A stretch of DNA of 64,000 bases, from assembly GCA_963663035.1 (NCBI GenBank), contig OY760074.1:960001-1024000 (forward strand), written 5' to 3'. Within the stretch, counting starts at the first letter, position 1. Each line of letters opens with the position of its first letter. Below, piece by piece: positions 31,099-45,394 of this stretch. A program made the position numbers and the translations under genes. A model generated the notes under the pieces. It saw only the letters and a list, made by a program, of their open reading frames with translations. It did not search any database and was not told where the DNA came from. The stretch is from Acidobacteriota bacterium (lineage in GTDB: Bacteria; Acidobacteriota; UBA6911; RPQK01; JADFOI01).

Positions 31099-38194
<7,096 letters not shown>

Positions 38195-38211
38195 GATAAC
38201 GGACGGGTAGA

Positions 38212-38601
38212 ATGCACTTCATCATGACGCACTTGGTGTTGATAGCGATGTGTTTCTGGATCAGTTCAGGTGTTGCGTTGTTTTGGTGGCTCTGTTTGAA
38301 TCAGCCAAAGCCGATACTGCGAAGATATCCAAGAACAATCTTGATCCAAATGAGCCTGCCATTCTTACGCAATCGTTGGAGGGACATTGACCCCAATGAC
38401 GTCGAACATTTAAACACCTTTAGAAAAAGGCTGTTCGTTCGTGTAGTGTTGCTATTCGTCATTCCCACCTTTCTCGTTTTCCTATGTGTACGTCTGAACA
38501 TTATTTACCTACACAACATATCGACTGAGGTGGACATGAGGTCCGAGGAGATCGATAGAAAGGTTGAGGAATTCTTAAGGGACAGGCCGGATGACGAATG
38601 A
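38212..38601 (+). CDS. Putative immunity protein 1 (2 TM)
   Basis: Directly after the Rhs tip, low GC, YPR...LPF motif shared with paralogs. Confidence 0.75.
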   Translation: MHFIMTHLVLIAMCFWISSGVALFWWLCLNQPKPILRRYPRTILIQMSLPFLRNRWRDIDPNDVEHLNTFRKRLFVRVVLLFVIPTFLVFLCVRLNIIYLHNISTEVDMRSEEIDRKVEEFLRDRPDDE

Positions 38602-38971
38602 AGTACGGGTAGACTGTCCCCACATTTCGCCCCAAGAATTAGCCCGTGAGGGAGGTGTAGGAACTGGAGTTAACGCCACCATAGGACTGGCTTGTGGGGC
38701 TGCGATAATCTTGGCGCTCCTCTTGTGAACCCAAAGGAGAGATAGGGAATGGGTATTAATGCTTTCACCCTGCCTTACTATGTACTTTTTCTAGCTATGA
38801 TGATGATTATCATCAAGATTTATAGGAAAATGCCGTCCAAAGAAATTATAAAAAAATATCCACGGTCAACAATAGCCAAGAGTATCTGTCTGCCCTTCTT
38901 TGAGTCCTGGAAGAAAGATGTTGAACCGGACCACATTGACGTAATTGAAAGGTATGCGAGATCAGGCCGCG

Positions 38972-40351
38972 GAGCTACCCTCAAAAGGTGTGTAAATAGC
39001 ACAGGCGGTGATTATCCTTCCGGGTGAAAATAAAAACCCGGGCGGAAGAGCCCGAAAGGAAGGAGTCACACCGCCATGAGCAAGAAGAACATTGATCACA
39101 GTGTGGAGTCAAGAGTCTGCTTTGAACAGCTGGAAGAGTGGGTGCGAGAGCAGATCCAGTTTTACGTACAGGAACTGCTGGAGGATGAAGTGACACAGCT
39201 GCTGGGACGAAGAAAGAATGAGCGTCGCCGAGAAGTGGACGCCTCCGGTGGCTATCGCAACGGCTACGGCAAGGAGCGGCGACTGACGATGAGTTGCGGA
39301 ACGATCAAGCTGCGGCGTCCCCGAGTGCGGGATCTGGAAGAGCGTTTTGAGAGCCGGGTCTTGCCGCTGTTTGCCAAGCGAACGCGAGAGGTACGAGACT
39401 TGATTCCAGAACTCTATTTACATGGTCTGGCCGAGGGGGATTTCGATCTGGCCTTGAGAGGGCTTTTAGGGGAAGAAGCGCCGCTGTCCCCCAGCACCGT
39501 AGCCCGGTTGAAACAGAAGTGGCAGGGAGAAATGGAGGCCTGGCAGAGCCGTCGGCTGGATGATCTGGAAGTCGTGTATTTGTGGGCGGACGGCGTGTAC
39601 ATCAAAGCAGGGCTGGAGAAGGAGAAGGCCGTGATTCTGGTAGTGATCGCCGCTTTAAGTGATGGCACTAAAGTGGTGGTGTCCGTCAGTAGTGGTTATC
39701 GAGAATCGACCCAGAGCTGGTCCGAAGTGCTGCGGGATCTCAAAGAGCGGGGGATGAACCCACCCCGTCTGGTGATCGCTGACGGGCATCTGGGGATCTG
39801 GGGAGCGTTGCGCAACGTGTTCCCAGAAGCCGACGAGCAGAGATGCTGGAATCATCGCATCGTCAACTTGCTGGCCAAGATCCCCAAGAGTCGGCACAAA
39901 GCGGCCTTGTTGATGTTGCGGCAGATCCCTTATGCAGAAACACGGCAGGAAGCCGAGCGAGTCAAAGGACGATTCCAACATTGGTGTAGCAAGAGAGGCC
40001 TGGAGGCAGCGGCTGATCTGATCGACCAGGACTGGGAGCGGATGGTGACGTTTTACAACTATCCCAAACAGCAGTGGCAACATCTGCGGACTACCAACCC
40101 AGTGGAGTCTCCCTTCTCTGCTCTGCGACTGCGAACCGATGCTGCTCGAAGGTTCAAGAAAGTGGCCAACGCACGGGCTGTCATCTGGAAGATGCTGCTG
40201 GTCGCTGAGAAGAGATTTCGCCGTTTGAAGGCTCCCCACTTGATGAAGGATGTCTACCAAGGAGCCCAATATGTCAATGGAGTTCCAGTCAACCCAGTCA
40301 CCCAGGAGAAAGCCGCCTGATGTCTATTTACACACTTATTGACGGAACCTC
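38972..40351 (+). mobile_element. IS256 family insertion sequence
   Basis: IRs GAGCTACCCTCAAAAGGTGTGTAAATAG / CTATTTACACACTTATTGACGGAACCTC; 9-bp TSD CAGGCCGCG (38963-38971, 40352-40360). Confidence 0.95.
39076..40320 (+). CDS. IS256 family transposase
   Basis: YRNGY, WADG, IADG, QRCWNH, RTTNPVES. Confidence 0.96.
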   Translation: MSKKNIDHSVESRVCFEQLEEWVREQIQFYVQELLEDEVTQLLGRRKNERRREVDASGGYRNGYGKERRLTMSCGTIKLRRPRVRDLEERFESRVLPLFAKRTREVRDLIPELYLHGLAEGDFDLALRGLLGEEAPLSPSTVARLKQKWQGEMEAWQSRRLDDLEVVYLWADGVYIKAGLEKEKAVILVVIAALSDGTKVVVSVSSGYRESTQSWSEVLRDLKERGMNPPRLVIADGHLGIWGALRNVFPEADEQRCWNHRIVNLLAKIPKSRHKAALLMLRQIPYAETRQEAERVKGRFQHWCSKRGLEAAADLIDQDWERMVTFYNYPKQQWQHLRTTNPVESPFSALRLRTDAARRFKKVANARAVIWKMLLVAEKRFRRLKAPHLMKDVYQGAQYVNGVPVNPVTQEKAA

Positions 40352-40529
40352 CAGGCCGCGCTCTCATAGTTACTTTGCTTGTCTTTATTAGTATCTCCAG
40401 CATCATAAGATATCTACAGGTTGTGTACTTGTTGAGTGTTGTCGAAGGGTAGACTCTCCCTGCATTTTCGGAGGTAGTGTTGCCAGTCTCGTCTTTGCCT
40501 TTTGCTTTGTTCTCTAACTAAATTCAAGA

Positions 40530-40913
40530 ATGGATTGGCTAATGGCTGTTGTGCCGACACTTGTGTTTGTTCTTGTTTTCATTTGGTTGGTCCTGTCGGG
40601 GTTACACTTCTTGAAATGGAGGTCAAAGCACTCTCCGAAAAGCACTATGGCTAACTATCCAAGGCGCTCTATCTTCCAACTGATGCTATTTTTGCCGGTA
40701 AGTGGTTCGCCAACTATTGATTCCGATGACTACGATATCTTGACTGACTATAGAAGAAGAGTATGGATCCGTTATCTGGTCTTCGTTCTGATGCCGATTT
40801 TGATTATTGTTTTATGTGTGCGGATCCTGTCTCTTCGTATCGGCCAAACGGTAAACGAAATCCAAACGGATAGGCAGGAACTTGAACGTAGAATCGAAGA
40901 AAACACCCGTTAG
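40530..40913 (+). CDS. Putative immunity protein 3 (2 TM)
   Basis: Paralog of 38212-38601 (YPR, ID.DD..L..YRRR, P....LCVR, coiled-coil tail). Confidence 0.75.
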   Translation: MDWLMAVVPTLVFVLVFIWLVLSGLHFLKWRSKHSPKSTMANYPRRSIFQLMLFLPVSGSPTIDSDDYDILTDYRRRVWIRYLVFVLMPILIIVLCVRILSLRIGQTVNEIQTDRQELERRIEENTR

Positions 40914-41020
40914 GAAAAATGAGAGATCTAGGTTGGTACTTCCCCCACTTTTCCCCTTTTGGCGTCTAAGCTTGAGCAATTCTTGTTGCCTTTAACCCTC
41001 GTAAGATTTAGGATCGAGCC

Positions 41021-42694
41021 ATGAAACGAGCACTTACCTTAATGGCGCCCTTATGGGTAATTTCTGTGCTGATTCTATGGGGCTGCAGCGGACTGAGAGG
41101 GGATGAGGTCTTGTCCGAGGAGCAATTGGCCTGCGAAGCCCTGTCCGAGATGCGGAACTTAACCATTACCCTGGCTCAACTGGTGGAAGCCACCGAGGAG
41201 ACACCCGAGTACTGCTACGTGAAAGGAACCATCTCTCCTGGCATCGTCTATCATGTCCAGCTGCCCTTACCTGAGAACTGGAACGAGCGACTTCTCAACA
41301 TTGGAGACGGCGGCAAGGACGGAGATCTGGATTTTGCCGATTATCGCCTGGCCCAAGGCTATGCCGTGGCCAACAGCAACATGGGACACGACAACGGCTC
41401 CGAACCGGGAGCATCCTTTGGCTTCAACAACCGCCAGGCGGAAATCGATTTCGGCTACCGCGCGGTGCATCTCACGGCCAATGCTTCCAAGACTGTCGTG
41501 GACGCCTATTACGACAGGGATCCCGAGTATTCGTACTTTGAAGGCTGTTCCACAGGCGGCCGCGAGGCTCTTATGGAAGCTCAGAGGTTTCCCTACGATT
41601 TTGATGGAATCGTGGCAGGAGCTCCCGCTCTCTTTTATCAGAGGGCCAATGCCAACCACGTCTGGATGTTACAGAGAGTATTCCGCAACAACCTGGCCGG
41701 AAATCTGGCCTATGACAAGGACGGCGATGGCACACCTGAGAGCTTCACCAAGCTGAACCTTTTGAGCGACACCATGTTGGCCAAGTGTGATGGAGTGGAC
41801 GGAATCAGTGACGGCGTAATTGACGACCCGTTGGCCTGTGATTTCAAGCCGGAGGTTGATCTGGCTGACAAGATGTGCCCAAACAACGTCAATGGGGATG
41901 CTTGTTTTACCACCGAACAGATACAAACCATAAAGGATATCTACGGCGGAGCACACGACAGCAGAGGCGACCTGGTGTACAAGGGCAAACCCTTGGGCAC
42001 GGAGACGGGCTGGGCTTTCGCTCTTTTCCCTCACGCAGGCAACTCCATGACACCTGCCCGGGTGGGCACGCCGCAGCGTCCTGGCACTGCCGGCGACCAC
42101 CTCAACTACCTCTTCTATGAAAATGACCCAGGGACCACCATGCCGAAGTTCACGGACCTCTCCCAGGTCCCAAACAAGACGAGACAACCTCCTGAGTATG
42201 CGTGGTGGGAATTCAATGTCGATGACGTCACCAACGGCAAGGCGGATCTGATGATCTCGATCACCGAGGCCAAGGATCCTGATTTGAGCCGTTTTTTGCT
42301 CAAGCAAGACGGCAAGCTGATCATTTACCACGGGTGGAGGGACTCCCTGGCCAATCCCGAACCCACGCTGGACTATTACAAGGACGTCGTGGCCACGACC
42401 TTCAGCGGCGACCTCAACGCTGCTGTGGAGAAGACGCGGCTCTTTATGATTCCTGGAATGGGCCATTGTGCCGGTGGCCCGGGACCGAATACCTGGGAAA
42501 GGCTGGCACCACTGGTGGATTGGGTGGAAAACGGTAACCCACCTGATGCTCTGGTCGCCACCCATAGCACCGATGGAGTGGTAGACAACGAGCGGCCTAT
42601 TTGCCCCTACCCCCAACGGGCTGTTTTCACGGGTCCCGCTGGCGGGGAGAACGATTCTGCCAACTGGGTGGCAAGTAATTTTACCTGTCGGTGA
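41021..42694 (+). CDS. Tannase/feruloyl esterase family lipoprotein
   Basis: GCSTGGRE, DFDGIVAGAP, YHGW.D, PGMGHC; lipobox LWGC. Confidence 0.93.
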   Translation: MKRALTLMAPLWVISVLILWGCSGLRGDEVLSEEQLACEALSEMRNLTITLAQLVEATEETPEYCYVKGTISPGIVYHVQLPLPENWNERLLNIGDGGKDGDLDFADYRLAQGYAVANSNMGHDNGSEPGASFGFNNRQAEIDFGYRAVHLTANASKTVVDAYYDRDPEYSYFEGCSTGGREALMEAQRFPYDFDGIVAGAPALFYQRANANHVWMLQRVFRNNLAGNLAYDKDGDGTPESFTKLNLLSDTMLAKCDGVDGISDGVIDDPLACDFKPEVDLADKMCPNNVNGDACFTTEQIQTIKDIYGGAHDSRGDLVYKGKPLGTETGWAFALFPHAGNSMTPARVGTPQRPGTAGDHLNYLFYENDPGTTMPKFTDLSQVPNKTRQPPEYAWWEFNVDDVTNGKADLMISITEAKDPDLSRFLLKQDGKLIIYHGWRDSLANPEPTLDYYKDVVATTFSGDLNAAVEKTRLFMIPGMGHCAGGPGPNTWERLAPLVDWVENGNPPDALVATHSTDGVVDNERPICPYPQRAVFTGPAGGENDSANWVASNFTCR

Positions 42695-42782: not shown

Positions 42783-43697
42783 TTACCCTTTCCCTTTGAC
42801 TCTAGTGGCTTTACCTGGTGAGACAATTATTTCATCGATCAGAGCGTACTTGTTCTTGCGGTTTGCGTAAAAGGTCCAGAGATCCTCGCGTTCAACATCG
42901 TTGAGCACCGTCACAAGCGTTCTTCCTTGGGGGTCTTCGTCCAACCCACGGTCTATCTTTATGACGCCAACGTCGGTCAGCACCAATCGGGAATGAAGGT
43001 CCAGGGAATCATTCTCATCCTCCCATAAAACGAACTTGATTTCACTGTGTTGGGGAAGATGTCTCGAAAACCTCTGCTCGCATTCCTTCCTGAACCACTC
43101 ACCTTCTGCTTTTGCCCTCAAATGATATTCGAATCGAGACAAGGTTCTACCCTTTTCGGCACAAAGCAGGAAGTGGCCAAGTGGGCGAGTCCATTTCGCT
43201 CGCGAAGGGTCAAAGTAAGGATCGACCAAAATAACTTCCGTGCTGCTTTCGAGCAGCAGTTGACAGCATTCAGCAAGATCCTCTGCTGTTCTCTGAATCT
43301 GTCCGCCTCTACCGATCCTGATCAAAGGGTGCGTCTCCTCCACATCAGTTGGAGAGATGACATATTTCCTTTTAGTCTTACTCTCGTCGGCGATGATCGC
43401 TTGAAACGGCTTACGCAAATGCTCATCAAGTGCATTTTTCAGCCAGGCAACATCGAAGTTGAACGACCTTCCAGACTCCACAAGTTTCTGGCGCCTAAAT
43501 TGACGCAACCTCAGAGCGATTTTCTTCCTCTCGACATCTCCCAAATCTCTACAGGCTTTCAACACCTCGTCTTCCCATTTCTCTGGAAAGCGTGAGATGA
43601 GACGCCCGTGTTCAAAGCCAAACCGGTTAGTGATGTCTTTAAAGACTTCCCAACTACCCAATGCAGCGGGTTCGAGGGCATATTCACGAAAGATCAA
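42783..43697 (-). CDS. Hypothetical protein with PLD/MIT_C-like motif
   Basis: LVDPYF and LHSRLVLTDVGVIKIDRGLD; start overlaps ATPase stop. Confidence 0.75.
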   Translation of the reverse strand: MIFREYALEPAALGSWEVFKDITNRFGFEHGRLISRFPEKWEDEVLKACRDLGDVERKKIALRLRQFRRQKLVESGRSFNFDVAWLKNALDEHLRKPFQAIIADESKTKRKYVISPTDVEETHPLIRIGRGGQIQRTAEDLAECCQLLLESSTEVILVDPYFDPSRAKWTRPLGHFLLCAEKGRTLSRFEYHLRAKAEGEWFRKECEQRFSRHLPQHSEIKFVLWEDENDSLDLHSRLVLTDVGVIKIDRGLDEDPQGRTLVTVLNDVEREDLWTFYANRKNKYALIDEIIVSPGKATRVKGKG

Positions 43698-45394
43698 AAC
43701 AGCTCCTCCTCGCGCTCTTCAAAGAACCCACGCGGCCAGCGATCGATGAATTCGCCGGTCTTGTCGATCCTCAGCGGGGAAACATGGACCACCCCGTCAG
43801 CGGACTCCATAAAAATCACACTGACCTGATCGGGCGTGAGGGGTTGAACGTCCTTCGGTAGCTTATCCTCGCTGGTCTCGCGGATCCTACGGAGGAGCCT
43901 CAGCATGAGGTGTTCACTGTGAGTCTCCAATAAGAAGAGGTTATCGCCTGTCTGGATCTGAGCGATGAATAGGTCAGCCAGCTTTGATTGCAGTGCTGGG
44001 TGAATGTGCAATTCAGGCTGCTCGACCGTGACAATCTGGTCTTTGGATAATAAAGCTGCAATAACGACCGGGATCAACTGGGACGCACCCGTTCCCACGT
44101 CTCGTGGATTGAGGTCGCGGCCCGTCGTAGATTTTCTCAGCACCACGCGTGCCCGCTCGGGCATCTCGTGAATGCATTCCTCAATCTCAGGGGGATCTGT
44201 TACAGCCTCCGCGTCCAGCTTGGAGATTTGGGAAGACTCAAGCTCTCTGAAACGTCGGACGATGATTTTATAGCCCGTGTCTAGCCGATCTGCATCCTCT
44301 AACCATTGATTGATTTCAGCTTCTTTTTCTGGTGTTACTGTGAACAGTTCCTCCCACACACTGAGGCCAGAGTGTAGGCCAAATGCTGAAACGGGCTCGT
44401 CTTGCTCCAGAACCCTCGGAGGGCGAGCGCGGAGGGGGCCAAGGTACCGCAAAGACCGGAGAAGGTGTTCCACCATGGCTCCAGGCCGTAAGATGCATCG
44501 GCTCAAGATGTCATCGTACCCGTCCTTGAGCTGATAGCGGTCGTCACCATCCAGGTGTTCAGCGTCTCCTTTCTCGACCTCTTCTTCGCTGTCAATCTTT
44601 TTTTCACCGGCTGCTACGGCTTGTTCCCAGTCCGGAAGAGCACCCGCGCATCGTGTAAAAATATGGCCGGCACTCGGTGGGCCTGGAGGGTTGCCGGACC
44701 AGTGCCAGTGAGAGATGTCTTCAAGCATGAAATTCGAAAGCTCGTGAAATAGGTTGGGCGATTTCGAAGACCTCCCCTTACGGAAGATATGATGCTGGGT
44801 GTTGAAAACCGTGTCGAGGACATAGGGCTTCAGGTTCATATACCAACGTAGGAACTGGTCTTGGTCCACATCCTTGTACTGTTGGATGCGCCTAGAGGGA
44901 CCTACGTCGGAAAGCTTGGAGAAAAATTCTTCGTTCAACTCCACTCGGCAGGAGGCAAAATAGGGAATCGATAGAATCGGATCCCAGCAGACCGAAACTG
45001 AGACCGATGCGCGTTGCACCTTGGCCAAGCAGTCTAGACAGCGTTCTGTCAATCCGACGTGTTGAACTGTTCTGTGCTCAAAGGGAACATCACCAGACAG
45101 ACCAACCTTTTCAAGATCGATTTCCACAGTGACTGTAATGGGGAGTGAGAGATCGTAGTTGTGCACCATGTTCTGGAAGCCACCCAGATCGAGCGGCTCA
45201 TCGAAGATCGTCACTTGATGCGGATTCGGATTGTGGTTCACGAAGATTTCCCGTGCGTAGAGAAGAGCTTCCATTACGGTGCTCTTTCCGGCGCTGTTGG
45301 GACCGAACAGAAGCGTGATCGGTTTGAGCTCAATACGTACAGGGTCGCCGATCGCCTTGAAATTCTGGATGGTAAGAGCTCTCAGAGTTGCCAA
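43694..45394 (-). CDS. ABC-type ATPase with DUF3696-like C-terminus
   Basis: GPNSAGKS, VGTGASQ, VEQPELHIHP, ETHSEH, GEFIDRWPRGFFEE. Confidence 0.9.
   Translation of the reverse strand: MATLRALTIQNFKAIGDPVRIELKPITLLFGPNSAGKSTVMEALLYAREIFVNHNPNPHQVTIFDEPLDLGGFQNMVHNYDLSLPITVTVEIDLEKVGLSGDVPFEHRTVQHVGLTERCLDCLAKVQRASVSVSVCWDPILSIPYFASCRVELNEEFFSKLSDVGPSRRIQQYKDVDQDQFLRWYMNLKPYVLDTVFNTQHHIFRKGRSSKSPNLFHELSNFMLEDISHWHWSGNPPGPPSAGHIFTRCAGALPDWEQAVAAGEKKIDSEEEVEKGDAEHLDGDDRYQLKDGYDDILSRCILRPGAMVEHLLRSLRYLGPLRARPPRVLEQDEPVSAFGLHSGLSVWEELFTVTPEKEAEINQWLEDADRLDTGYKIIVRRFRELESSQISKLDAEAVTDPPEIEECIHEMPERARVVLRKSTTGRDLNPRDVGTGASQLIPVVIAALLSKDQIVTVEQPELHIHPALQSKLADLFIAQIQTGDNLFLLETHSEHLMLRLLRRIRETSEDKLPKDVQPLTPDQVSVIFMESADGVVHVSPLRIDKTGEFIDRWPRGFFEEREEELF

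Follow-up and report, generated by a model that had tools for sequence, protein, structure and literature searches.

A stack of immunity genes downstream of a frameshifted Rhs toxin gene in an uncultured member of the Acidobacteriota, with remnants of a dispersed palindrome at its joints

Introduction

Which strains survive an encounter with armed relatives is decided by poly-immunity arrays, but how these arrays come about is mostly inferred. A chromosomal Rhs polymorphic-toxin locus of an uncultured Acidobacteriota bacterium, which lies in the 64,000-nt stretch of DNA analysed here (the window), raises the question of how three immunity genes came to stand in a row behind one toxin gene with the same short motif at both internal junctions. 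An earlier note on this DNA had proposed that the genes were captured from related toxin alleles at a specific sequence, each carrying along only the last 15–30 codons of its toxin. We found that the locus is probably a pared-down version of a toxin–immunity stack of known type and not a dedicated capture site. Its modules a, b and c are likely to belong to one small, unnamed family of membrane toxins and to have accumulated as one toxin end after another was displaced.

Results

The Rhs gene and its toxin domain

The gene that heads the locus belongs to the Rhs/YD-repeat polymorphic toxins, having RHS/YD repeats, a core domain and a variable C-terminus (Table 1). The 991-aa ORF of its C-terminal part matched Pfam RHS_repeat (PF05593, 1.3e-77, with 10 stretches), Laminin_G_3 (2.7e-28) and TIGR01643 (8.5e-48), and the Rhs-associated core (TIGR03696, 2.6e-26) was found at residues 808–884; this domain shuts the shell and precedes the variable toxin. 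Homology of the core to five related loci (L018–L022) stopped at 37778; beyond this point the toxin domain of the window, CTa, and that of the relatives, CTc, were collinear with three aligned Cys and 24% identity over 106 residues (E 0.001). GC content was 43.5–47% over the toxin end and the array versus 52–59% in the surroundings. When the window was searched with the 2480-aa Rhs protein of L021 by tblastn, the match ran in frame 1 to about 35004 and then in frame 2, and the 19-nt sequence that is present in two copies here was single-copy in L021 and L022. The locus is decaying, as the broken reading frame of the Rhs gene and an IS256-family element inside imm2 show, and with the primary Rhs frameshifted it may have lost toxin delivery.

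Table 1. Features of the Rhs locus, in positions of the window
Feature	Position	Strand	Description
Rhs N-terminal part	31099..35121	+	Ig-like domains (Big_9) and first RHS repeats; Pfam RHS_repeat 3.8e-20
19-nt direct repeat	34960..35022	+	copies at 34960-34978 and 35004-35022; shifts the Rhs reading frame
Rhs C-terminal part	35219..38194	+	LamG, RHS repeats, Rhs-associated core, then CTa
CTa	37871..38194	+	107-residue toxin domain after the core; hydrophobic N- and C-terminal stretches, three Cys
imm1	38212..38601	+	two-helix membrane protein by hydropathy and paralogy; presumed immunity to CTa
J1	38596..38631	+	repeat centre and right arm; contains imm1 stop codon
First stub (tip')	38636..38728	+	30 codons and stop, ending 20 nt before imm2; putative CTb remnant
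imm2, 5' part	38749..38971	+	by paralogy; ortholog P0004
IS256-family insertion sequence	38972..40351	+	1380 bp, inside imm2; Transposase_mut 1e-59
imm2, 3' part	40361..40452	+	second membrane helix and stop
J2	40433..40469	+	repeat right arm; contains imm2 stop codon, abuts second stub
Second stub (tip'')	40467..40517	+	last 16 codons and stop of toxin CTc
imm3	40530..40913	+	immunity paralog; orthologs adjoin CTc in relatives
J3	40904..40957	+	decayed repeat centre and right arm at imm3 stop; synteny break

No sequence match to CTa was found in Pfam, NCBIfam or PDB, and its structure model (pLDDT 58) was too poor to serve as a search query. An ortholog that is 74% identical (P0116) sits on a different Rhs protein with an L018-like core. 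A search for toxin relatives with the 991-aa ORF region returned only the region itself, and a toxin profile found four proteins at E≤1 among 8000 scored candidates, none of them a CTb. Hydropathy analysis revealed two hydrophobic stretches each in the toxins and in the immunity proteins. Each C-terminal domain and the product of the next gene would form a putative toxin/immunity pair in which the latter neutralises the former, and we infer that the membrane is where the toxins act and where the two-helix immunity proteins counter them. Rfam gave no match at E≤1 over 37500–41500. A scan for promoters and terminators gave no excess over shuffled sequences.

Three paralogous immunity genes

The three divergent paralogs recognised earlier proved real in pairwise BLASTP comparisons (imm1–imm3, 2.4e-16; imm1–imm2, 3.9e-07; imm2–imm3, 0.008); their mutual identity was only about 25–29%. 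The [RKN]YPR, LP and acidic-turn motifs ascribed to all three were visible in the alignments, and the conserved loop of the family read KYP[RK] ... PF ... W ... D ... YR.R. Among 1.84 billion proteins the family had 98 representatives at E≤1e-3, including orthologs of all three paralogs (P0003, P0004 and P0002). These orthologs were 74–85% identical to their respective paralogs (imm1 and P0003, 74%); P0003 and P0004 lie on contigs of 984 and 620 nt, too short to show the genomic neighbourhood of these imm1 and imm2 orthologs.

Neither the three proteins nor 16 relatives matched any Pfam family above the cut-off, and protein clusters of the family yielded no name. Imm17, a family in which WxW and R lie between two transmembrane helices (Zhang et al. 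2012, PMC3482391), was rejected as an identity for imm1–imm3 on the same Pfam result and on the conserved loop. An AlphaFold2 model of imm1 (pLDDT 90.4) gave no Foldseek match at E≤1; with VIA-align it reached Z scores up to 8.0, against generic helical hairpins, and ESM Atlas scores for the family went up to 0.85, which we treat as leads only. When 401 genomes of the phylum were searched with the immunity profile, convincing matches were found solely in the window's own genome; marginal ones in two others (E 0.004–0.01) lay inside long ORFs and were taken as chance. Among 15 genomes of the family, two were positive, the window's own and one other (G403). Divergent alignments offered no conserved stretch that could serve to find related loci.

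Reading across the excised insertion sequence restored a 104-residue imm2 paralog. The element conforms to the IS256 family in transposase type (NF033543, 287.5 bits with the cut-off at 150), inverted ends and an 8–9 bp target duplication, here 9 bp at 38963–38971 and 40352–40360. A 1387-nt contig of run X4 covered exactly the span of this element; cover of the stretch by runs was judged from contigs only, uncovered parts counting as no evidence.

Toxin remnants between the immunity genes

Of the three modules, a is CTa with imm1, joined to the Rhs core. The remains of module c are the last 16 toxin codons and imm3, and its source could be read directly in relatives. In all five recovered loci (L018–L022) the 3' end of CTc directly precedes the imm3 ortholog; four of them extend into the Rhs core, and in L018 CTc stands at the end of a single open frame of at least 2630 aa. 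This bears out, for module c, the proposal that the immunity genes came from related toxin alleles with a tiny toxin tail. Here imm3 is an orphan whose orthologs are paired with an intact effector elsewhere, and the effector's 3' remnant lies upstream of it. An HMM built from six toxin C-terminal domains gave the second stub 14.9 bits, a score equalled by none of 1000 shuffles, which upholds the earlier alignment of this start-less frame with the Rhs C-terminus.

The homology of module c to L018–L022 begins exactly at 40467 and ends at 40920, and over these 454 nt identity was 90.3–91.2%, whereas the adjoining Rhs core (37359–37778) was 70–76% identical (70.7–75.7%) to the same relatives. At the protein level imm3 was 83–88% identical to its orthologs in the five loci, with a dN/dS of 0.37 against L018, and synonymous divergence was 0.19 for imm3 versus 1.74 for the core end. 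By these sequence comparisons module c is a recent lateral arrival relative to the Rhs core. In a contig of run X7 matching likewise ended at 40467, despite 110 further letters.

Module b is more conjectural, the first stub before imm2 being read as the end of a toxin CTb. What marks it as a toxin remnant is its position and a hydrophobic, Cys-containing tail. Both start-less frames exist as they had been written down, but the claimed alignment of the first one with the Rhs C-terminus was at chance level, since 412–513 of 1000 shuffles scored equally well against the toxin HMM, and MAFFT placed this stub on the toxins' N-terminal hydrophobic stretch. No relative of the stub, such as a full toxin with the same end, was found at E≤10 among 176 scored candidates of 80–2000 aa. 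The G-x10-C pattern is literally present in all three ends, but its spacing carries no weight in the first stub because five G occur in the 13 residues ahead of the Cys. The statement that only the last 15–30 toxin codons were kept agrees with the 16 codons of the second stub; the first stub is a toxin remnant by position only.

The first stub could instead be spacer DNA or part of a small 45-codon membrane-protein gene starting from an ATG at 38591, a reading that we regard as possible rather than probable. Such an ATG-started ORF with one hydrophobic stretch exists, overlapping the imm1 stop, and it would suit both the dissimilarity of the stub to the toxin profile and the lack of database relatives noted above. 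On the other hand, its first 13 codons consist of the end of imm1 and repeat-derived DNA, the gap between the stub's stop and imm2 resembles those between toxin stops and imm1 (17 nt) and imm3 (12 nt), and the stub shares its layout with the proven second stub. We keep the putative CTb remnant as our reading of the first stub.

A dispersed palindrome at the junctions

The motif reported at 38607–38627 and 40447–40467 was present at both positions, and the 21-nt sequence was enriched in the window, with two matches against 0.05 expected and none of 100 shuffles reaching two. It turned out to be the right arm of a palindromic extragenic repeat of about 76 nt that is dispersed over the genome in 12 full palindromes together with short and half or lone forms. 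Of the full or short copies, 15 of 16 lay between ORFs. J1 aligned locally to a full copy with a score of 57 (0 of 500 shuffles) and agreed with the commonest arm at 20 of 21 positions; J2 scored 32 (2 of 500) with 17 of 21 positions. The imperfect inverted repeat that had been noticed after imm3 and related to the motif also held up, J3 scoring 32, reached by 0 of 500 shuffles. Each immunity gene is trailed by a remnant of the repeat centre and right arm, and at J1 and J2 a stub is fused straight onto the arm's outer end. A 12-nt match just past the Rhs stop (J0) was scored as well by 21 of 500 shuffles.

These observations could also arise if the repeat had nothing to do with the trimming, ordinary displacement and deletions having made the array and repeat copies having landed later behind the immunity genes. 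We consider this unlikely, though several features fit it. At other sites, too, the repeat sits outside genes, frequently no more than about 20 nt from a stop codon; two further lone right arms trail unrelated same-strand genes, 9 and 11 nt past their stops; and the junction remnants are decayed, J1, J2 and J3 folding no better than shuffles (z 0.44, 0.0 and 1.27). Against it, the arm's outer end and the toxin remnant at J2 meet at 40467, the very position from which the full toxin is matched, and overlap there by 3 nt (TTC). J1 has the same layout, and two independent later insertions would each have to coincide with the end point of a deletion. The causal role of the repeat is nevertheless circumstantial, as the repeat may favour the 3' ends of genes and may have landed after the array had formed. 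The locus of the relatives holds no repeat copy, including at the break point of the CTc–imm3 module; repeat-like sequence after their imm3 was within the range of chance, with 58 and 45 of 500 shuffles scoring as well. Nor was a repeat copy found near genome position 903.3 kb, where the rearrangement has its other end.

Much less probable is a dedicated, sequence-specific system, integron-like or HUH-driven, that inserts immunity cassettes at the motif. Its appeal lies in the motif occurring at the two internal junctions with one orientation and in the reading frame of the stubs, in the related sequence that closes the array, and in the rAID-1 arrays of Bacteroidales, in which immunity genes occur with repetitive intergenic sequences and an XerD-type recombinase (bioRxiv 10.1101/471110). 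However, at up to one mismatch a 14-mer of the motif had 32 matches in the genome, compared with two for a reversed control, and 30 of the 32 lay outside the locus, as arms of the extragenic palindrome beside unrelated genes. The earlier note had itself set its capture idea against a motif that is common outside such loci, and this is what the search returned; since the motif occurs genome-wide as an arm of an extragenic palindrome and is not proper to Rhs loci, the array is very probably not a dedicated capture site. In related genomes, which it had proposed to scan for the motif, 3 of 30 contained it. The linked recombinase or HUH transposase that it had suggested looking for was also missing: a Pfam scan of window positions 14–56 kb, run on ORFs of at least 110 aa after overlapped ones had been dropped, gave no recombinase, integrase, Xer or HUH gene. 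The genome has two Y1 transposase genes (PF01797), one flanked by a different repeat and the other by none, and the break point of the CTc–imm3 module in relatives bears no motif. An integron- or rAID-1-like cassette array would have an adjacent tyrosine recombinase and recombination-site repeats of its own, and these searches found neither. The palindrome was also rejected as a MITE of an IS1380-family element of roughly 30 copies, their ends being unrelated (alignment scores 12–16).

Finally, tandem duplication and divergence in place, which three tandem paralogs with a repeated junction sequence might call to mind, can hardly be right, given the low identity among the paralogs, the far closer ortholog that each has in other organisms, and a module c that matches a toxin-attached module elsewhere at 91% identity and is so much less diverged at synonymous sites than the flanking core.

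Discussion

How might a displaced toxin have been cut away so close to the end of a repeat? In the mechanism that we propose, the incoming module would have paired homologously within the Rhs core on one side, and its right side would have been closed by an illegitimate or repeat-assisted joint. That joint would have fallen at the end of the repeat trailing an immunity gene, the repeat being a bystander element turned into a joint and not a dedicated recombination site. A stronger version, in which the dispersed palindrome, with a copy behind each immunity gene, is a working joint, acting as a fragile end or as a portable patch of homology that allows integrase-free stacking with the displaced toxin mostly cut away, is speculative and on present evidence improbable. 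If it were true, the locus would exemplify integrase-free, repeat-assisted collecting of immunity genes, coupled to a previously unnamed family in which small membrane toxins carried by Rhs are paired with two-helix immunity proteins; if the repeat is a bystander, it is an ordinary, decaying Rhs array. A break at the end of a dispersed palindrome offers a testable idea of illegitimate joints by which the toxin is lost while immunity is kept. The locus also adds a toxin/immunity family with no relative in Pfam, NCBIfam or PDB, from a poorly studied phylum.

The closest precedents are displacement arrays. The Rhs C-terminal displacement arrays of Jackson et al. (2009), whose "dissociated tips" are described as retaining a partial core, a core repeat and the whole tip (PMC2935791), resemble the present locus in that displaced modules lie behind an intact Rhs core, within a low-GC trough, and in that a tip displaced in one genome can be found attached in another. 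They differ from it, as far as that description goes, in the absence here of any core and in the few toxin codons kept, 16 in the second stub and probably about 30 in the first. The earlier observation that classical orphan Rhs modules usually keep part of the core while this array does not was confirmed, as a search of the genome with its own Rhs protein gave no Rhs core match in 38195–40954. Because the intact counterpart of module c is present in related genomes, the displaced one can be read down to the single base.

In the type VI secretion loci of Vibrio cholerae, an incoming module replaces the effector and the old immunity gene moves downstream, sometimes with the 3' end of its effector; homology-facilitated illegitimate recombination without an integrase was proposed (Kirchberger et al. 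2017, PMC5361080), and displacement has been described for Rhs as well (PMC2935791). The present locus is like those portrayed in that study in its orphan immunity genes from effector displacement and its 3' effector remnant, and unlike them in its carrier (Rhs instead of VgrG or other T6SS effectors), its phylum, its single immunity family and the dispersed palindromic repeat at every joint.

We infer that the array works as a homogeneous poly-immunity locus and that its bearer would be shielded from relatives that carry CTb or CTc; relatives armed with CTc exist (L018–L022). As outlined by Zhang et al. (2012), homogeneous polyimmunity loci are separate from regular toxin loci and often stand beside XerC/D (PMC3482391). 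The array shares with them tandem, same-strand, closely placed paralogous immunity genes with no intact toxin genes between, and departs from that outline in being attached to Rhs, in its toxin stubs, in having no recombinase nearby and in an immunity family that corresponds to no named Imm family in Pfam. The rAID-1 arrays of Bacteroidales, for which Ross et al. report a conserved XerD-family recombinase and array-specific repeats (bioRxiv 10.1101/471110), likewise have orphan immunity genes separated by repetitive intergenic sequences, but compared with that report the locus has no recombinase and a repeat that is genome-wide.

The repeat itself is best compared with REP/REPIN elements, characterised by Bertels and Rainey (2011) as short extragenic palindromes in many copies that form inverted doublets, with a long hairpin possible, and leave lone remnants (PMC3116915). 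Set beside that account, the present repeat is not found flanking a RAYT gene, has only about a dozen full copies and is patchy among relatives, occurring in 4 of 31 genomes including the window's own. It is nonetheless alike in being a short extragenic palindrome with many copies, inverted doublets and lone forms.

Organisation and state of the immunity array

The whole array sits downstream of a large Rhs gene and holds three presumed immunity genes (imm1, imm2 and imm3), two start-less frames (the first and second stubs) and repeat remnants at three junctions (J1 to J3). The GC content was 43.5-47% across the toxin end and the array, compared with 52-59% in the Rhs core, the insertion sequence (IS) and the flanks. 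The two open reading frames (ORFs) listed for the Rhs gene were found to be a single gene split over two frames. Two copies of a 19-nt direct repeat, with starts spaced 44 nt from each other, shift the frame; the related loci L021 and L022 have a single copy. Given this frameshift and the IS insertion within imm2, the array looks like a decaying locus in which the immunity genes outlast the weapon. A contig of sequencing run X2 joins the head of the IS to its tail across 3 nt; this could reflect a circular or tandem form of the element, or it could come from the assembly. The Rhs protein also contains a LamG (Laminin_G_3) domain where L021 and L022 have ~23 nt and the Rhs protein of the related locus L018 has a different Gly-rich insert of roughly 1000 residues; this region of the Rhs shell seems to tolerate domain insertions. 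Near the Rhs N-terminus lies a poly-D tract of ~30 Asp codons, with a shorter version in L018.

Features of the Rhs locus and scores of its junction sequences
Feature	Window position	Detail	Junction score	Shuffles reaching score
Rhs gene, listed ORFs	31099-35121; 35219-38194	one gene, two frames
Poly-D tract	31440-31560
19-nt direct repeat	34960-34978; 35004-35022
LamG domain	35124-35762
CTa toxin domain	37871-38194	last 107 residues, after Rhs-associated core domain (TIGR03696, residues 808-884)
J0		after Rhs stop; candidate match	24	21/500
imm1	38212-38601
J1, repeat remnant	38596-38631	significant	57	0/500
First stub	38636-38728	short open frame
imm2, 5' part	38749-38971
IS256-family IS	38972-40351	1380 bp; 9-bp target duplication; borders backed by a run X4 contig spanning exactly this interval
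imm2, 3' part	40361-40452
J2, repeat remnant	40433-40469	significant	32	2/500
Second stub	40467-40517
imm3	40530-40913
J3, repeat remnant	40904-40957	significant	32	0/500
Tannase-family gene	from 41021	unrelated
304-aa and 566-aa gene pair	42783-45394	- strand

For comparison of the paralogs, imm2 was reconstructed by removing the IS computationally at its coordinates. All three proteins could be aligned end to end, and BLASTP gave 2.4e-16 for imm1-imm3, 3.9e-07 for imm1-imm2 and 0.008 for imm2-imm3. Each contains two hydrophobic stretches, and the model of imm1 (pLDDT 90.4) has helices at residues 2-29 and 61-124 with short helices in between. At E<=1e-3, a profile of the three paralogs matched 98 cluster representatives in a search of 1.84 billion proteins; most are 90-130 residues long and have a conserved loop, KYP[RK] ... 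PF ... W ... D ... YR.R. No Pfam family scored above cut-off for imm1-3 or the relatives checked, and fold searches with the imm1 model returned generic helical matches only. Close orthologs of imm1, imm2 and imm3 are the database proteins P0003, P0004 and P0002, respectively (74% and 84% identity where measured), named by their sources only as "Acidobacteria bacterium" MAG proteins; the contigs carrying the imm1 and imm2 orthologs span just 984 and 620 nt.

Origin of the two stubs

The imm3 family recovered five related loci, and in all five the second-stub sequence precedes the imm3 ortholog. In L018 this sequence closes an uninterrupted frame of 2630 aa or more that encodes an Rhs protein. 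The final ~100 residues of this protein (CTc) match CTa in length and layout, and an alignment of the two domains over 106 residues (E 0.001) showed 24% identity and three aligned Cys. The second stub scored 14.9 bits against an HMM built from six toxin domains, a value reached by 0 of 1000 shuffles. Judged by its sequence, the second stub is a genuine toxin end (that of CTc), and the proposal of the earlier note that immunity genes had been captured with minimal toxin tails was borne out, the stub corresponding to the end of a full Rhs toxin in 5/5 loci. The relatives' nucleotide homology to the window starts exactly at 40467 and ends at 40920, with 90.3-91.2% identity, whereas identity falls to 70.7-75.7% in the neighbouring Rhs core (37359-37778). 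In one genome pair, imm3 showed a synonymous divergence of 0.19, compared with 1.74 at the core end; the dN/dS of imm3 was 0.37. Being far closer to the relatives than the core in both identity and synonymous divergence, module c (CTc end and imm3) moved, by these measures, between the lineages well after divergence of their Rhs cores. Furthermore, the database protein P0116 carries an ortholog of CTa, 74% identical, on an Rhs core resembling that of L018, which shows that toxin ends are exchanged on one scaffold.

The first stub scored about -0.5 bits against the same HMM, with 412-513 of 1000 shuffles equal or better, and MAFFT aligned it to the toxin's N-terminal hydrophobic stretch. No relatives were returned by a word-based search of proteins 80-2000 aa long. 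What the earlier note had described was largely real: the paralogs, the motif and the second tip stood, and the toxin alignment of the first tip did not. The stop of the first stub lies 20 nt upstream of imm2, placed like the other two toxin ends, and its tail is hydrophobic and contains Cys. The only points in favour of a putative toxin remnant here are this position, this tail and the analogy to the second stub.

The junction motif belongs to a dispersed palindromic repeat

Allowing at most 1 mismatch, the junction 14-mer had 32 matches in the 3.59-Mb genome, compared with 2 for a reversed control, and most were inverted pairs 42-43 nt apart. Twelve copies are almost perfect palindromes of ~76 nt; the repeat also occurs as a few short hairpins and as lone right arms. 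Of 16 full or short copies, 15 are intergenic with respect to ORFs of 100 aa or more; they are found whatever the orientation of the neighbouring genes, and often no more than ~20 nt from a stop codon. Two lone right arms are located 9 and 11 nt past unrelated same-strand genes. The junction motif is therefore one arm of a genome-wide palindrome with 30 of the 32 matches outside the locus, and not the dedicated capture site that had been proposed. Of 30 related genomes searched for the 18-mer core of the repeat, three contain it (G403, 20 matches; G410, 7; G421, 2). L018 belongs to G403, and its Rhs locus has no repeat copy. The suggested link to a recombinase or HUH transposase found no support: no recombinase gene is present within window 14-56 kb, and neither of the genome's two Y1-transposase genes is flanked by the junction repeat. 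Derivation of the repeat from a roughly 30-copy IS1380-family element was rejected because the element ends are unrelated to it. A Y1 (RAYT-like) transposase gene (genome contig C1:345684-347428) has another, GC-rich repeat on either side; the genome thus contains two or more extragenic repeat families that are unrelated to each other, besides the ~30 IS1380-family copies.

Junctions were scored by local alignment of one full repeat copy and compared with 500 shuffles. The match in each of J1, J2 and J3 extends from roughly the palindrome centre to the far end of its right arm and includes the stop codon of the preceding immunity gene; folding of these remnants was in no case better than that of shuffles. 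This far end of the arm directly meets the stub at J1 and J2, and at J2 arm and toxin overlap by TTC, at the base where full-toxin homology begins. At J3 the relatives' homology stops and a different gene follows, synteny breaking 7 nt past the imm3 stop (40920 onward). The gene found ~1 kb after imm3 in L018 and L021 lies ~97 kb away here, inverted (C1:902717-903330), and no repeat copy was seen at that site.

Proposed displacement of toxin ends

The array would work like the polyimmunity or orphan-immunity arrays outlined by Zhang et al. 2012 (PMC3482391), the orphan-immunity arrays outlined by Kirchberger et al. 2017 (PMC5361080) and the rAID-1 arrays outlined by Ross et al. (bioRxiv 10.1101/471110). 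However, it lacks the defining feature of classical dissociated Rhs tips, since it keeps no Rhs core, and those of integron-like or rAID-1 arrays, since recombinase and array-specific repeat are absent. Together, the observed facts fit successive displacement of toxin ends, as proposed in outline for Rhs (PMC2935791) and for Vibrio cholerae T6SS clusters (PMC5361080). An incoming module would pair with the conserved Rhs core and its right end would be joined illegitimately within the resident toxin gene, thereby pushing the old immunity gene downstream. What is unusual here is that nearly the entire displaced toxin is lost and that every joint lies at the end of the dispersed palindrome; a toxin stub so bounded was not found in a non-exhaustive literature search. 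The main rival is that the repeat landed later, unrelated to the trimming, but this requires two insertions precisely at the deletion end points. Under toxin-end displacement, the donor DNA may have terminated at a repeat trailing the donor's immunity gene. Alternatively, a palindrome may have landed in the resident toxin gene, whereupon repeat-to-repeat recombination and then loss of the left arm would have made the joint.

Neighbouring and distant elements

Beside the array, a gene pair encodes a 304-aa protein without family and a 566-aa AAA_15/AAA_21/DUF3696 ATPase, and looks like a defence-type module. Elsewhere in the genome (C1:387671-390930) a second Rhs-repeat fragment of 382 aa is flanked by two identical 346-aa transposase genes in inverted orientation, an arrangement that resembles a composite transposon.
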